Of a stretch of 64,000 bases of DNA, positions 16,965 to 54,219 are shown piece after piece. The position numbers and the translations under genes were made by a program. A model generated the notes under the pieces. The model was not told the DNA's origin. It was given only the letters and a program-made list of their open reading frames with translations, and searched no databases. The DNA comes from Clostridia bacterium (GTDB taxonomy: Bacteria; Bacillota; Clostridia; Christensenellales; CAG-314). The DNA lies in assembly GCA_028698585.1 (NCBI GenBank), contig JAQVWG010000003.1, positions 3,518-67,517 of the forward strand, read 5' to 3'. Position 1 is the first letter of the stretch. The number at the start of each line of letters is the position of its first letter.

Positions 16965-17092
16965 GATAACTCCTGTTAATAGTAAGCGTGAATTAACTGT
17001 GCAATAGATTGGGTTAGAGATAACGGTGCGTTAATTAATAAATGCTCATATAGTTGACAATATCTTAAGTGTGCAGACACATTGGTAAGATT

Positions 17093-17555
17093 ATCTCATG
17101 TACGTATGTGTGTATAACAACGTATGACAAGGAGATGGCGTGTGATTGGTCAATAATTGTGCGAATGGTGTAGACACCTTATGCTAGATAGGTATTGCAA
17201 TGGTAATCTATATCTCATGTACGTATGTGCGTATAACAACGTATGACAAGGAGTTGGCGCGATGTCTGTTCAATAATTGTGCGAATGGTGTAGACACCTT
17301 ATGCTAGATAGGTATGGCAATGGTAATCTATATCTCATGTACGTATGTGCTTATAACAAAGCATGACAAGGAGTTGGCGTGTGATTGGTCAATAATTATG
17401 CGAATGGTGTAGACACCTTATGCTAGATAGGTATGGCAATGGTAATCTATATCTCATGTACGTATGTGCGTGTAACAATGCATGACAAGGAGTTGGCGTG
17501 TGATTGGTCAATAATTATGCGAATGGTGTAGACACCTTATGCTAGATAGGTATGG
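17093..17555. repeat. Tandem array of about 3.9 copies of a 119-120-bp unit (unit starts at 17093, 17212, 17332, 17451)
   Basis: Read directly. Each unit carries the inverted repeat GGTGTagACACC and a small hairpin whose arms vary but stay pairable. A degenerate partial copy precedes 17093. Confidence 0.95.
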
Positions 17556-22676: not shown

Positions 22677-23923
22677 AAAACGGCAAGTTCAAGAGTCATA
22701 CAGACCTAGTCAACAGTTATGATAATCTACAGAAGGCATTTACACGCAAGTGCCAGTATGTTAAGCAGTTGAGTAAACTGTTAACAGATGCAGATATACC
22801 GTTGCCGACCAATAGGAATAACCAGTTGAATATTGACAGCGATGTCGGCGCAGACTGTGGTGAAGGTGTGCATATTGGTGATGTTGATGTGTCTTGGCCT
22901 GTACATTATGACAACACCTTTGATAACGACAACACCGTTACTTGTGCAACCGAAGATACTGGAGGTGTTGTCGAACACAATCCAATAGATAATTTAATGC
23001 AAGCGCTGGACGAAAAGGATATTGCTACTATCAATAATGGTATAGACGCAGATGGTGACACTGTAGCTCGAAATAAGAAAAAAGGTATTACTGCGATCAA
23101 TTGCGATATAAACACAGACAGTAACTCTGTCGCTCAAGCACAAGAAATAGGTTGTACTTCAACTAGTATTGATACAGACGCAGACAGTGACGCCGTGGTA
23201 CAGGAGCAGGAGAAAAAGTGTTTAGCTACAATCAATAGTGATTCAGAAGCAGATAGTAACTCTGTCGCTCAAGCACAGGAAATAGGTTGCACTTCAACTA
23301 GTATTGATACAGACGCAGACAGTGACGCCGTGGTACACGAGCAGGAGAAGAAGTGTTTAGCTACAATCCATAGTGATATAGGCTCAGATAGTTACTCTGG
23401 CGTGCAGAATCAGGGAGCGACAGATTACACTGCAACTAATACCAATACAAACACGGATAGTAATGACGCAACGCAAAAGGGACAATCTTCGGTCGATACA
23501 CACATAGGCGCCTCGGCCGAAGTTGATTATATAAGTGGTACAAGCAGTCTGCCACCACGAGAGATGGACAAACAATCATTCTATAACAAGTATCCACTGG
23601 CAACATTGTTCAGCGATCAAATTGAAGCAGTATTGGACAACCCTGATGTTTCATTCTGCAATGACCGTAAAGAAGCGTTGCTCAATGTGTGTTGCGACAA
23701 GACTTTGCTGTATCATGCGCTGGCTGGCGACAAGGATTTTTGCGATTATATATGTAACAACGAACAGATTAAGCGCAGAATACTAGCTGATTACCTGATA
23801 GCGCTACAAAACAATCGTGTCGCACCGACAATTAAATCGGGGGCAAAGTTGCCACTATGTCCACCTCAAAGGCCCACAACTCTTAATGAAGCGAATAGAA
23901 TGGTCAAGCATTATATCGGCTAG
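22673..23923 (+). CDS. Scaffolding-like protein with an acidic repeat-containing centre
   Basis: 416 aa with an ATGA overlap to the portal gene. The N-terminus FKSHTDLVNSYDNLQKAFTRKCQ resembles scaffold N-termini. The D/S/T-rich middle contains a 45-aa tandem repeat. Positioned directly before the capsid gene. Confidence 0.55.
   Translation: MKNGKFKSHTDLVNSYDNLQKAFTRKCQYVKQLSKLLTDADIPLPTNRNNQLNIDSDVGADCGEGVHIGDVDVSWPVHYDNTFDNDNTVTCATEDTGGVVEHNPIDNLMQALDEKDIATINNGIDADGDTVARNKKKGITAINCDINTDSNSVAQAQEIGCTSTSIDTDADSDAVVQEQEKKCLATINSDSEADSNSVAQAQEIGCTSTSIDTDADSDAVVHEQEKKCLATIHSDIGSDSYSGVQNQGATDYTATNTNTNTDSNDATQKGQSSVDTHIGASAEVDYISGTSSLPPREMDKQSFYNKYPLATLFSDQIEAVLDNPDVSFCNDRKEALLNVCCDKTLLYHALAGDKDFCDYICNNEQIKRRILADYLIALQNNRVAPTIKSGAKLPLCPPQRPTTLNEANRMVKHYIG
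23113..23376 (+). repeat. In-frame tandem repeat, 2 x 135 bp (45 aa), inside the scaffold-like CDS
   Basis: ..DSNSVAQAQEIGCTSTSIDTDADSDAVV(Q/H)EQEKKCLATI(N/H)SD.. occurs twice. At the nucleotide level there are only a few substitutions. Confidence 0.9.
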
Positions 23924-37997: not shown

Positions 37998-38389
37998 ATA
38001 GCGCAATTATGACACTAGACAATCATTAGAAAACCACAGTTAATCTATGAATATCAATATAGATAACAAGAATTAAGGAAACCGACCGTTAATCTATGAA
38101 TAACAATAGTACCCACAAAATAGCGCAAAAATGACACTAGACAATCATTAGGAAACCACAGTTAATCTATGAATATCAATATAGATAACAAGAATTAAGG
38201 AAACCGACCGTTAATCTATGAAAAACAATAGTACCCACAAAATAGCGCAAATATGACACTAGACAATAATTAGGAAACCGACCGTTAATCTATGAATAAC
38301 AATAGTACCTACAAAATAGCGCAAATATGACACTAGACAATCATTAGGAAACCGACCGTTAATCTATGAATAACAATAGTACCCACAAA
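37998..38389 (+). repeat. Tandem array of 4 units (122, 122, 74, 74 bp), each ending with the start codon and first 8 codons of the downstream U32 gene
   Basis: Unit starts (atagcgcaa) are at 37998, 38120, 38242 and 38316. ATGs are at 38096, 38218, 38292 and the real one at 38366. A degenerate older copy lies near 37843-37900. Confidence 0.95.
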
Positions 38390-39610
38390 AGAATAGAATT
38401 ACTTGCTCCCTGTGGCGATTGGGAAAAACTACTTACAGCACTACACTTCGGCGCAGACGCTGTGTACCTCGCCGGTAAACAACTAGGACTGAGGGCATAC
38501 TCTGGCAACTTTACAGATGAGCAGATAGCCTCAGCCTGCACTCTAGCACACTCAATGGGGAGAAGGGTGTATGTAACAGTCAACATTTTTGCCAGAAACA
38601 ATCACTTTGACACACTTGACGCATATTTGACTTATCTGTACAACTGCGGTGTGGACGCCATAATAGTATCTGACGCAGGGATAATTGCACGAGCGCATGA
38701 AGTAGTGCCAAACCTACCCATTCACATGTCTACTCAAGCCAATATCACTAACAGCAGAGCAGTCAATTTCTGGGCATGTCAAGGTGTTACAAGGGTAGTG
38801 CTAGCCAGAGAATTATCGCTGAGTGAGATTGCCGACATCGTTGCTGACAGCAATGCCGAAATTGAGACATTCGTACATGGGGCTATGTGTATGAGTTATT
38901 CGGGCAGATGTCTGCTCTCTAACTACTTTACTGGTCGCAAGAGCAACATGGGCGAGTGCGCACAGCCCTGTCGGTGGGAGTATGCACTCACACAGGCAAC
39001 GGTATATCCAACTGATAAGACTGACCAACCCATGATAGTGGAGGAGGACTGCGAGGGTACTTATCTGTTTAATAGCAGAGACCTCAATATGCTCTCATAT
39101 ATCGATAGACTTATTCAAGCTGGCATAACCTCTCTCAAGATTGAGGGCAGGATGAAGTCGCCATATTACGTAGCTACGGTAGTTAATGCTTATAGAAGGG
39201 CAATTGACAGTTATTACGACAACGATTGCCATTATCGGTTAGACAAGACACTACTAGCAGACCTAGATAAAGCCAGCCACAGACTTTATACTACTGGATT
39301 CTATTTCGACCAGACGGACAGGCAGAATAATGAGAGTTCGAGGGCTGTTGGCGAGAGTACGTTTATTGCTGTGGTGCTGTCATATAATAATGGACAAGCA
39401 ATCGTTGAGATGCGCAACAGGTTCTGCGTGGGGGATAGGTTAGAGATACTGTCCAGCGGTGACAGTTTCAATAAGAGTTTCGTGGTGGATAGCATAACAA
39501 TGCAGGGTATGAGTGTAACTGACGCTAAGGTAGTGCAACAAGAATACTGCATTAACTGTCCATATCCCGTACAGCCGTTAGATATATTGCGTACGGGCAA
39601 TAAGGACTAG
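38366..39610 (+). CDS. Peptidase U32 family protein (YrrO/TrhP-like)
   Basis: 414 aa. N-terminus ELLAPCGDWEKLLTALHFGADAVYLAG, plus the Cys-rich block GAMCMSYSGRCLLS...ECAQPCR typical of the U32 family. Confidence 0.85.
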   Translation: MNNNSTHKRIELLAPCGDWEKLLTALHFGADAVYLAGKQLGLRAYSGNFTDEQIASACTLAHSMGRRVYVTVNIFARNNHFDTLDAYLTYLYNCGVDAIIVSDAGIIARAHEVVPNLPIHMSTQANITNSRAVNFWACQGVTRVVLARELSLSEIADIVADSNAEIETFVHGAMCMSYSGRCLLSNYFTGRKSNMGECAQPCRWEYALTQATVYPTDKTDQPMIVEEDCEGTYLFNSRDLNMLSYIDRLIQAGITSLKIEGRMKSPYYVATVVNAYRRAIDSYYDNDCHYRLDKTLLADLDKASHRLYTTGFYFDQTDRQNNESSRAVGESTFIAVVLSYNNGQAIVEMRNRFCVGDRLEILSSGDSFNKSFVVDSITMQGMSVTDAKVVQQEYCINCPYPVQPLDILRTGNKD

Positions 39611-51340: not shown

Positions 51341-52552
51341 ATGGAAAATGTGTTAGATGTGTTCAAACAAAGGGGTCTGCTCAAACAGACAGTGTACGAA
51401 GACGAGTTATATGAAAAACTGGGTAAAGAAAGTGTTACCTTCTATATAGGATTCGACCCAACTGCCGACAGCCTGCATATTGGACATTTCGTGCAGTTCA
51501 TGGTTATTAAACAAATGCTCAAATACGGCCATAAGGCTATCATTCTATTGGGTGGTGGCACAGGAATGGTCGGTGACCCGACAGACAAGACGCAGATGCG
51601 TGAGTTAATGACCACTGACGTTATTGATGATAATTGCAGACATTTCGTCAAGCAGATGAGTAAATACCTAGATTTTAATGACACCAACTGTCGCATAGTC
51701 AATAATGCTGACTGGTTGAGGGACCTCAACTACATTTCGTTCTTGAGAGAGATAGGTGTGTACTTCAGCGTTAACAAAATGCTCACGGCTGAATGTTATC
51801 GCAGCAGAATGGAAAAAGGTCTATCATTCCTCGAACTCAACTATATGTTAATGCAAGCATACGACTTCTTAATGCTCAACAGACTGTACGGCTGTCAGGT
51901 AGAACTAGGTGGCGATGACCAGTGGAGCAACATCTTAGCAGGCGCAGATTTAATCAGGAGAAAGGAACAGAAGCCGGCATACGCAATGACATTCGCCCTA
52001 TTAGAGAACAAGGAGGGCAAGAAAATGGGTAAGACCAGCAGTGGCGCTATATGGCTGGACGAGAACAAGACAACGCCTTACGAGTTCTATCAATACTGGC
52101 GCAACATTGACGATGCAGATGTCGCCAAGACATTCAAGGTGCTAACTTTCCTACCCGTTGAAGAGATAGAAGAGTTGACCAAGTATAATGACGAGAGGAT
52201 GAATATGGCAAAAGTTCGCCTCGCATACGAGATCACCAAGATTATTCATGGTGAGTCAAAAGCGCAGTTGGCTAAACAACAGGCAGAGGCGGCATTTAAT
52301 GGTGCAACGGAGAATATGCAGAGTATCACACTTAGCGCACAGACAGTTCACAATGTAATAGATGTGTTAATTGCTTCTAAGTTCGCGCTGTCTAAGGGAG
52401 AGGCTAAACGGTTAATTGAGGGTGGTGGTGTATCTATTGACGACCATAAGATAACACAGTTTGACCAGCCTATACCACAATGTGCGCTTGATAAGGGCGA
52501 GTTCGTTATTCATAAGGGCAAGAAGAATCATCTCAAGATAGTATTAGAGTAA
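51341..52552 (+). CDS. tyrS: Tyrosyl-tRNA synthetase
   Basis: 403 aa. HIGH motif (SLHIGHF), KMSKS variant (KMGKTS), GGDDQW, and a C-terminal S4-like domain. Confidence 0.93.
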   Translation: MENVLDVFKQRGLLKQTVYEDELYEKLGKESVTFYIGFDPTADSLHIGHFVQFMVIKQMLKYGHKAIILLGGGTGMVGDPTDKTQMRELMTTDVIDDNCRHFVKQMSKYLDFNDTNCRIVNNADWLRDLNYISFLREIGVYFSVNKMLTAECYRSRMEKGLSFLELNYMLMQAYDFLMLNRLYGCQVELGGDDQWSNILAGADLIRRKEQKPAYAMTFALLENKEGKKMGKTSSGAIWLDENKTTPYEFYQYWRNIDDADVAKTFKVLTFLPVEEIEELTKYNDERMNMAKVRLAYEITKIIHGESKAQLAKQQAEAAFNGATENMQSITLSAQTVHNVIDVLIASKFALSKGEAKRLIEGGGVSIDDHKITQFDQPIPQCALDKGEFVIHKGKKNHLKIVLE

Positions 52553-52646
52553 CTCTGCTAAGCAGAATAATTATGTGGTAATTAGCAACGCAGTGACACA
52601 TCAATCTGTATCAATTGCAGTAATATGATTGACTGTCAATAGAGTC

Positions 52647-52905
52647 TAAGTAGTACAGGGCTATAATGGACAAAACCATAGGTTATACAACTATATCTAA
52701 TATCAATAAGTATCAACTGCAATGATTGTAATTGAAAGTAATCTGAGTTCAAGCAGTAGCAGGGCTATAATGGACAAAACCATAGGTTATACAACTATAT
52801 CTAATATCAATAAGTATCAACTGCAATGATTGTAATTGAATGTAATCTGAGTTCAAGCAGTAGCAGGGCTATAATGGACAAAACCATAGGTTATACAACT
52901 ATATC
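52647..52905 (+). repeat. Tandem array of about 2.5 copies of a 104-bp unit containing the yigZ start codon and first 10-11 codons
   Basis: ATGGACAAAACCATAGGTTATACAACTATATC occurs at 52666, 52770 and 52874. Only the last copy continues into the gene. Confidence 0.95.
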
Positions 52906-53509
52906 AAGCGAGATAATAAGCGAGGAGTTTGTGATAAACAAATCTCGCTTTATTGGTTATGCCAAGGGAATAACGGATATAGACGATGCCAAGTGGTTCA
53001 TTAAACAGATTAGTAAGAAGCATTATGACGCTACCCATAACTGCTACGCTTATTTATTGGACACATACGCTAAATACGGTGATGACGGTGAGCCACAGGG
53101 AACGGCTGGATTACCCATACTTGACTGTATCAAGAAGAATGAATTGACCAATGTATGCGTAGTCGTTACTAGATATTACGGCGGTGTTAAACTGGGTGCA
53201 GGCGGACTTGTCCGAGCATACTCTCAGGGCGCTTCGACAGTACTTGCCAGTGCTAAACTACTCAATTATTACCCTTGTGCATTGATTGAGATACAGTTAT
53301 CTTATGACAACTATCAGCCCGTTCTCAACTATTTACCTAAAGTAGCCGATTATGCAATAGTTAAGAGCGTGGATTATGCAGACAGCGTGTGCGTTAGATG
53401 TGCCGTCAAAGTAGATAAAGTGCAACAGCTAGAGCAGACTATATCTAATTACAGTAATGGTAAGGCCATTTGGCAGATAACCGACTATACATACCAGTTA
53501 TACAACTGA
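52874..53509 (+). CDS. yigZ: IMPACT/YigZ family protein
   Basis: INKSRFIGYA and THNCYAYLL..DDGEPQGTAG.P are family hallmarks. Start placed at 52874. The ORF-track start at 52826 lies inside the repeat and has no RBS. Confidence 0.85.
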   Translation: MDKTIGYTTISSEIISEEFVINKSRFIGYAKGITDIDDAKWFIKQISKKHYDATHNCYAYLLDTYAKYGDDGEPQGTAGLPILDCIKKNELTNVCVVVTRYYGGVKLGAGGLVRAYSQGASTVLASAKLLNYYPCALIEIQLSYDNYQPVLNYLPKVADYAIVKSVDYADSVCVRCAVKVDKVQQLEQTISNYSNGKAIWQITDYTYQLYN

Positions 53510-53595
53510 ATACTATAATTGATTACTGAGAACATATTAACAGACAATTGATAATGCCTGTATAACCTAGCAGGTGCAGGTATAATAGGTACACA

Positions 53596-54219
53596 ATGGG
53601 AACGATTACGGCAATTCGACCGACATACAGACATAAGGATAGAGTAGACTTATACGTAGATGACAACTATTGTTGCAGTCTAACTGCATTTTCGGTTGCC
53701 AAGGCAAGGCTGGTTGTGGGCAAATGTATTGAACAGAGCGATATTGACGACATTATGCGCACCAGTGAGAATGAGATAGCATTCGACAAGGCGTTATCGT
53801 ATATCAGCCGTTCTGTGCGGACAGTCAAGCAGATGAGGGATTACCTAACACAGAAGGCATTCGCTGAGTCAGTCATTGAGGATACTATTAATAAACTCAT
53901 TTACTATAAGTATCTAGATGATACTGCCTACGCTAGTATGTATACTGCATATGCCAGCGGTAACAAGGGTGCGAGGGCTATCGCATATGAACTGAAGAAC
54001 AAGGGAGTAGATTCACAGATAATCGAACTGGCGTTAACGCAACTAGATGAGGACAAAATGTATAACACATGCTATGAACTTGCCCTCAAGTACACTCGCA
54101 GTAAATTGCTCGATGACAAGACTATCAATAATCTTATGCGTTACCTAATGAGCCGTGGGTATGAGTACAGCACTGTCAGTAGCGTGGTTGCGAAAATTAA
54201 GTCAGGCACAGATAGTTAA
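53596..54219 (+). CDS. recX: Recombination regulator RecX
   Basis: 207 aa. N-terminus ..R.R..LY.DD...L and three-helix repeat architecture (..ALSYISRS.RT..QMRDYL..KGF..). Confidence 0.75.
   Translation: MGTITAIRPTYRHKDRVDLYVDDNYCCSLTAFSVAKARLVVGKCIEQSDIDDIMRTSENEIAFDKALSYISRSVRTVKQMRDYLTQKAFAESVIEDTINKLIYYKYLDDTAYASMYTAYASGNKGARAIAYELKNKGVDSQIIELALTQLDEDKMYNTCYELALKYTRSKLLDDKTINNLMRYLMSRGYEYSTVSSVVAKIKSGTDS

Follow-up and report, generated by a model that had tools for sequence, protein, structure and literature searches.

The start of yigZ in this uncultured landfill Clostridia species is repeated in tandem directly upstream of the gene. In the window, by which we mean the whole 64,000-nucleotide stretch of DNA that was analysed, a 104-bp unit containing the weak ribosome-binding site, the ATG and the first 11 codons of yigZ is laid head to tail three times. 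We put the probability at about 80% that this array represents an unstable tandem duplication peculiar to the locus (a minisatellite or VNTR) and lying across the yigZ initiation region, and that the relay of overlapping stop and start codons carried by its units is a by-product of the duplication. Taken alone, this array is a variable tandem repeat of an ordinary kind; the wider interest lies in the genome-wide background to which it belongs.

The genes at the locus are arranged in the order tyrS, yigZ and recX. All three are on the forward strand, with tyrS at 51341-52552 (tyrosyl-tRNA synthetase, Pfam PF00579, E 1.2e-76) and recX at 53596-54219 (Pfam RecX HTH1-3). The C-terminal tail of TyrS, KNHLKIVLE followed by the stop, matches the conserved tail of its relatives and ranks in the top 1e-5 of all ORF tails. 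The yigZ product is assigned to the YigZ/IMPACT-N (UPF0029) family through a PF01205 match well above the gathering score (E 3.6e-37, 127 bits against a cutoff of 27) and a family-typical N-terminus, with a further match to PF09186 (DUF1949, E 7.6e-6). Its best match among species representatives and 5.8 billion proteins is 50-53% identical, and no closer relative was found there.

Triplication of the yigZ head, with ATGs at 52666, 52770 and 52874, had been proposed in a sequence-only reading of this DNA and is borne out both by inspection of the sequence and by Tandem Repeats Finder, which reports 52648-52905 as a repeat of period 104 with 2.5 copies, 98% matches and a score of 495, placing the head-to-tail copies above chance. 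The core of the unit is a 42-nt head block (CAGGGCTATA, the ATG and a further 29 nt) that is 100% identical at 52656-52697 (H1), 52760-52801 (H2) and 52864-52905 (H3). H1 is a decoy head comprising a weak SD-like CAGGG (SD duplex -3.1 kcal/mol), a TATAAT hexamer at 52662-52667, the ATG at 52666 and the first 10 2/3 codons; H2 is a second decoy with its ATG at 52770, while H3 is the putative functional head, identified by register and homologue alignment, which runs on into yigZ. The heads are separated by two inter-head segments, U1 (52698-52759), which contains the decoy stop and an ATGA at 52722-52725, and U2 (52802-52863), with the corresponding ATGA at 52826-52829. A single base distinguishes U1 from U2, A52737 against T52841, and it changes Ser to Cys in the relay frame.

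The full array extends over 3 x 104 = 312 bp, since a decayed first half-unit, U0, occupies 52600-52655. U0 is about 71% identical to U1 and U2 with 4 indels, and its similarity to them (local score 31, against 14.5 +/- 2.5 for shuffles) was reached by none of 2000 shuffles and none of 1267 window controls. The spacer that follows the tyrS stop, 52553-52599, has no relation to the unit: a further decayed head right after that stop was considered and rejected, as semi-global alignment of 52553-52598 with the head gave p = 0.27 against shuffles and p = 0.28 against window DNA, leaving 46 nt between tyrS and U0 unrelated to the repeat. No other occurrence of the unit was found in the genome, making yigZ its single locus. 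The 29% divergence of U0 directly adjoins heads with 100% identity, a pattern for which uniform decay would give 0.71^42, or about 6e-7. To account for the identity of the heads, one would have to invoke concerted evolution limited to the block that has homology on both sides, exchange of the left flank by recombinational replacement, or selection acting on the decoy head.

The presence of a repeat at this position is supported by read data and by an independent assembly. Logan k=31 contigs of SRR22315503 show 100% identity with the window; one ends at 52685, 30 nt beyond the last base specific to U0, and the next starts at 52876, with 30 nt still to go to the first base specific to the gene. 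Breaks at the borders of the head block indicate that a branching repeat is present in the reads. The head-to-U junction is also found in an ENA MEGAHIT k=141 contig (ERZ27250894, k141_2387271), where the layout is U0, head, a T-type U, head and gene. This contig carries the same U0 and is 100% identical to the window outside the array, and its only inter-head segment corresponds to U2. It holds two heads where the window assembly holds three, and the distance from the tyrS stop to the yigZ ATG is correspondingly 217 nt in place of 321 nt. Both forms encode an identical 211-aa YigZ.

The difference between the two assemblies could itself be an assembly problem, in that the whole array might be an artefact or two U alleles, one A-type and one T-type, might have been joined to give a spurious third head. 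The genome assembly is scaffolded and of the short-read type, and 7 of its 14 100-N gaps adjoin tandem arrays, which implies that scaffolding fails at arrays. Redundancy is also evident, contig C16 repeating 57.3 kb of C15 in reverse complement at 100% identity, and the k=141 contig, with flanks identical to the window, has only two heads and the T-type U. An artefact of the whole array is nevertheless excluded by the junction in that independent contig and by the branching of the Logan graph at the head-block borders. Since k=141 exceeds the 104-bp unit and an A/T marker is present, a three-head array would contain no repeated 141-mer, so the two-head contig should reflect real molecules; moreover, the arrays of this genome keep largely clear of coding sequence and consist of copies that have diverged from one another (75-100% identity), neither of which is expected from an assembler. 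We therefore regard an assembly error as unlikely, and where one is entertained, a false third head derived from a two-head population is more plausible than an artefactual array. The broader warning is that array-rich genomes fragment and are mis-scaffolded in short-read assemblies.

Variation in copy number between close populations is thus seen, at the level of assemblies, for yigZ, and it is seen for other arrays too. A 93-bp array has 4 copies here and 2 in each of the ENA and JGI assemblies, a 112-bp array has 4.2 copies here and 2.2 in another assembly, and a 90-bp array has 2 copies here and 1 elsewhere, in each case differing by whole units between flanks that are 99.5-100% identical. 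The apparently consistent excess of copies in this genome reflects ascertainment, as the arrays were chosen for being visible in it. The JGI sample containing this species is a municipal landfill metagenome (PMC10076291). No third assembly carrying the yigZ locus was found. A scan of JGI metagenome contigs and a junction-pattern search of genome contigs gave no matches.

The position of the native start bears directly on what the upstream copies could do. The sequence-only reading had allowed two products, native YigZ from 52874 and a form with 16 additional residues from 52826, of which the first is upheld and the second finds no support. In 14 of 14 aligned homologues the N-terminus lies 1-3 residues before a conserved Y-T-[TI] motif, the position of the ATG at 52874, and none of the 14 has anything like the extension MIVIECNLSSSSSRAI. 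The 227-aa form is absent from a collection of 15 billion proteins, in which the 211-aa form is present, and the public gene call (P0001, 52874-53509, UPF0029/IMPACT-N plus DUF1949) is likewise the 211-aa form. Comparison with homologues thus shows the predicted native start of the 211-aa protein to be the ATG at 52874. For annotation the lesson is that the longest yigZ ORF (227 aa, 52826-53509, as in the ORF list) misleads, the correct call being the 211-aa one.

The geometry of the proposed relay is nonetheless exactly as it had been described. The two upstream copies each encode the same 19-aa peptide, MDKTIGYTTISNINKYQLQ, followed by a stop (52666-52725 and 52770-52829), and each of these decoy ORFs ends in an ATGA at 52722-52725 or 52826-52829 in which the stop overlaps a new ATG. 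The frame opened by that ATG runs without a stop into the next head, giving a 35-aa relay ORF at 52722-52829 that ends at the next ATGA, and then the 227-aa ORF. The overlapping stop and start would lie on one putative mRNA, no terminator having been found within the array or between tyrS and yigZ, and transfer of a ribosome across the overlap is physically plausible, as a -4 ATGA overlap is a recognised geometry for termination and reinitiation. What had also been suggested, a ribosome handed from unit to unit, holds up as geometry in its overlaps and open frame; as a selected device it finds no support in the homologues, the Shine-Dalgarno signals or the context of the array. Nor does copy number switch the reading frame in the manner of a phase-variable contingency locus, as the last head is always continuous with yigZ.

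How often such a relay would arise by accident was estimated from 43,860 simulated random duplications over SD-supported starts of this genome, using the observed unit lengths. The exact ATGA relay appeared in 0.76% of these and any overlapping stop/start relay in 2.4%; an open, in-frame restart between -10 and +20 nt was found in 9.2%, an in-frame fusion in 8.2%, and about 20% offered one route or another into the real ORF. The value of 0.76% for a single event counts against a by-product. The overlap was copied with every further unit, so the two relays are not independent evidence, and because it arose once in a unit and was copied along with it, the relay is a modest coincidence among several head-duplicating arrays and not a signature of design.

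The relatives point to a history of coupling between tyrS and yigZ. In 74 of 80 of them (loci L123-L202; Ca. Borkfalkia, Scatosoma and Gallimonas-type Clostridia, whose TyrS proteins are 60-65% identical), yigZ follows tyrS. The gap across these 74 junctions has a median of 4.5 nt, the commonest junction is an ATGA overlap (16 of 74), and another 15 have a gap of 0-3 nt. This pairing of an aminoacyl-tRNA synthetase gene with yigZ is conserved among the relatives and apparently translationally coupled; the tightness of the junction implies that yigZ was ancestrally coupled to tyrS and that the 321-bp spacer seen here is derived. In the window the tyrS stop lies in GAGTAACTC (52548-52556), with no overlapping start codon. 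The idea that the decoy peptide's final LQ and stop are a relic of the tyrS 3' end, from a duplication straddling an old ATGA junction, was examined and is unsupported (p = 0.06).

On this basis it could be argued that, after loss of the ATGA coupling to tyrS, the repeated heads became a dedicated ramp, tunable by copy number, which gathers ribosomes at several weak starts, delivers them to yigZ and so sets both the dose of YigZ and its N-terminal isoform. The SD of the MDKT start is weak (-3.8 kcal/mol; two thirds of the genes in this genome have a stronger one), and a relay survives as a minority reading because such a weakly served yigZ has lost its ribosome supply from tyrS. The confirmed overlaps, their rarity by chance, the ancestral junction and a perfectly conserved head block beside the decayed U0 are all consistent with a ramp, and the mycobacterial MIRU provides a precedent for repeat-borne ORFs coupled at -4 nt (PMC12548453). 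Against this, the restart ATG has no Shine-Dalgarno (duplex +0.1 kcal/mol), the extension it would add occurs in none of the homologues, the sole difference between U1 and U2 is non-synonymous in the relay frame, and the tyrS stop is not linked to the first head. A -4 overlap is, furthermore, present in only one of the five head-duplicating arrays inspected, and the yigZ array is one of about 100 and unstable in copy number. We find a dedicated ramp very doubtful. As the -4 geometry of the relatives' tyrS-yigZ junction has been recreated here, in a form expected in 0.76% of duplications, selection for duplications that are tolerated or that preserve expression is a weaker possibility, and may have acted.

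Multiplication of a promoter or regulatory site could offer another function for the repeat: every additional unit would bring with it further transcription starts or regulator sites ahead of yigZ. A TATAAT overlapping each ATG had been pointed out in the sequence-only reading, and the hexamer is indeed there, perfect in every unit and in H1 covering the AT of the ATG; it falls outside any forward-strand promoter match. A motif of the form GCAG(N1-4)GCAGG(N0-2)TATAAT has three matches genome-wide, two in the younger yigZ units (52752-52771 and 52856-52875) and one upstream of recX (53568-53589, 9 nt before its ATG), which may be a shared promoter or operator, or chance. These sites, together with a tyrS-yigZ interval in which no terminator was found, would suit added transcription starts, but the promoter scan found no forward-strand -35/-10 pair in the array, the number of promoter-like matches in the region equals that of shuffles (6 against 5.6 +/- 2.3), and TATAAT lacks a TG extension and is not rare at this base composition. 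We accordingly give promoter multiplication very little credence. On the minus strand each unit contains a TTGAAC-16-TACAAT promoter-like match directed back at tyrS (52829-52856 and 52725-52752), within a regional total that is not above shuffles. A leader-peptide attenuator or riboregulator was also considered and set aside: Rfam gave no match at the locus at E <= 1, the folds of the spacer and unit are ordinary (z-scores 0.05 to 1.3), and the locus contains no detected terminator.

The rest of the genome alters how the array is best read. Across 1.49 Mb, Tandem Repeats Finder identified 107 distinct arrays with a period of at least 40, having a median unit of 131 bp, a median of 2.4 copies, copy identities of 75-100% and a combined length of 37.7 kb; most have units of 90-220 bp in 2-5 copies. 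After removal of the redundant contig C16 and of arrays adjoining N-gaps or contig ends 95 were kept, of which 83 have a unit of at least 90 bp, or 58 per Mb. The same parameters applied to five relatives (1.485 Mb sampled) gave 5 such arrays, or 3.4 per Mb, so that the density of long-unit arrays here is about 17 times theirs. All-against-all comparison of the 107 units found no common repeat family; the exceptions were one 69/138-bp group and the arrays duplicated between C15 and C16. Units unique to each array imply that about 100 local duplications arose independently, rather than by the spread of a mobile element, and a mobile repeat family can be ruled out for yigZ, its unit being confined to a single locus and unrelated to those of the other arrays.

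These arrays are mostly non-coding (mean coding fraction 0.25 vs 0.81). By crude gene calls, 45 begin within the 3' end of a gene, 42 lie wholly between genes, 13 lie inside one and about 10 reach a 5' end; between co-directional genes the array is nearer to the 3' end of the upstream gene in 36 of 55 pairs (p = 0.03). Arrays that duplicate a gene head, besides that of yigZ, were found at tsaD (147 x 2.8, C6:90945-91361), smpB (129 x 1.9, C4:48267-48506), ruvB (168 x 1.9, C2:8592-8913) and another gene (43 x 3, C14:52472-52600). In these, the distance from the end of the decoy ORF to the next start is 19-115 nt; the -4 overlap is found, among the five, at yigZ only. Decoy heads, some of them already decayed, therefore stand upstream of essential or housekeeping genes at these four loci as well.

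Several further arrays deserve mention in their own right. The window contains others at 17092-17555 (119 x 3.9), at 23115-23399 (135 x 2.1, in frame within a gene) and at 37998-38390 (122 x 2.5 plus 74 x 2.7). At C10:32235-32334, a perfect 50-bp tandem duplication breaks the frame in the N-terminal region of an ABC ATPase gene; either the gene was inactivated very recently or the site is heterogeneous. A perfect 99-bp x 2.3 array at C4:177953-178178, which includes a tRNA 3' end (GGTTCGAGTCC...CCA) and adjoins an N gap, is probably an unresolved or mis-scaffolded repeat.

The mismatch repair genes of this genome offer a possible background for so many arrays. MutS_V scores are 240-298 bits in relatives, compared with at most a MutS2-grade 132 bits and a 75-bit protein here. 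The segment C1 151-171 kb of genome G005 is collinear with C2 31.8-52.9 kb of this genome, and at the site of the G005 mutS there are here 980 bp of non-coding DNA (C2:47567-48549) containing a 144 x 3.8 array. The gap lies between a 439-aa gene and mutL, which is kept, and MutS2 and a 471-aa MutS-like gene are also present. Judged by synteny, the canonical mutS is shown to have been truly deleted from its expected site. At C9:2982-3980 there is a 332-aa protein with a MutS-I-like domain in its C-terminal part, 43% identical to residues 11-87 of a relative's MutS, which sits among small phage- or ICE-like genes. PolA/FEN 5'-nuclease, RecJ and ExoVII are all encoded in the genome.

In E. coli, mutS loss is established as permitting exchange between imperfect repeats. 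Loss of mutS is a plausible permissive factor for the arrays of this genome, and may let diverged copies keep exchanging. It is not a sufficient cause, since two relatives without any MutS_V match (G007 and G021) have no excess of arrays, at 7 and 12.5 per Mb. One could extend the idea of a ribosome ramp to the whole genome and view the roughly 100 fast-changing gene-boundary minisatellites, enabled by mutS loss, as expression rheostats, with the yigZ ramp among them; this we hold to be most improbable.

Returning to an unstable tandem duplication as the preferred account, the yigZ array would most likely owe its origin and its changes in size to replication slippage or to unequal exchange between sister strands, and would be one case of a species-wide tendency to carry some 100 arrays at gene boundaries. 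That it spans the translation-initiation region of yigZ would be happenstance. With the last head continuous with the gene, native 211-aa YigZ would still be made from the ATG at 52874, while the two upstream heads would act as decoy initiation sites yielding the 19-aa peptide. The relay geometry would follow from a 104-bp unit length (2 mod 3), one ATGA that happens to be in frame and the copying of both by each duplication. Some reinitiation leading to a YigZ extended by 16 residues may occur, and would be incidental; the array as a whole is probably close to neutral. This species should provide a natural system in which to study what governs the appearance and turnover of bacterial duplications of 100-200 bp, and the ways in which genes tolerate duplication of their start or stop regions.

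Bacterial VNTR or minisatellite loci are familiar from MLVA typing, for example the ETR and MIRU-VNTR loci of M. tuberculosis. The yigZ array resembles these in consisting of head-to-tail units, tens to about 100 bp long, at a gene boundary inside an operon, and in having a copy number that differs between very close strains and outer copies that have decayed. It departs from them in that its unit belongs to no family, being copied from the first 11 codons of yigZ and the sequence upstream of them, and the host differs from other VNTR hosts in having about 58-72 arrays per Mb, far above its relatives.

Two further systems share the 4-nt overlap. Coupling of the trpB-trpA type (Huber et al. 2019, 2023, as cited in PMC12548453, a review of translational coupling) uses the same overlap, but the upstream ORFs at yigZ are decoys made by duplication and not genes, and a restart would add a non-native extension of 16 residues. 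Mycobacterial MIRUs, according to the same review, are intergenic repeats in operons with an internal ORF that is coupled downstream at -4 nt, an arrangement interpreted there as minimising the effect on expression (PMC12548453). In the yigZ unit the internal ORF similarly lies in a -4 overlap and is in frame and open to the next head. Where MIRUs are a dispersed, apparently mobile family found at many loci, the yigZ unit is restricted to one. Reasoning by analogy, the MIRU is the closest putative functional analogue of the yigZ array.

For the genome as a whole, the appropriate comparison is with satellite-rich prokaryotes. A survey found satellites to be scarce in most prokaryotes, with more than 4 per Mb in only 18 of 119 bacteria, and many unique long-unit arrays in Methanobrevibacter ruminantium and Clostridioides difficile (PMC6749651). 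The present genome is like these two in accumulating many unrelated, largely non-coding, long-unit arrays; its density appears much higher than in the surveyed genomes, but detection criteria differ, and the like-for-like control is provided by the relatives (3.4 arrays per Mb, compared with 58 here). Unique long-unit satellites are found in a few species, and this genome represents an extreme of that pattern.
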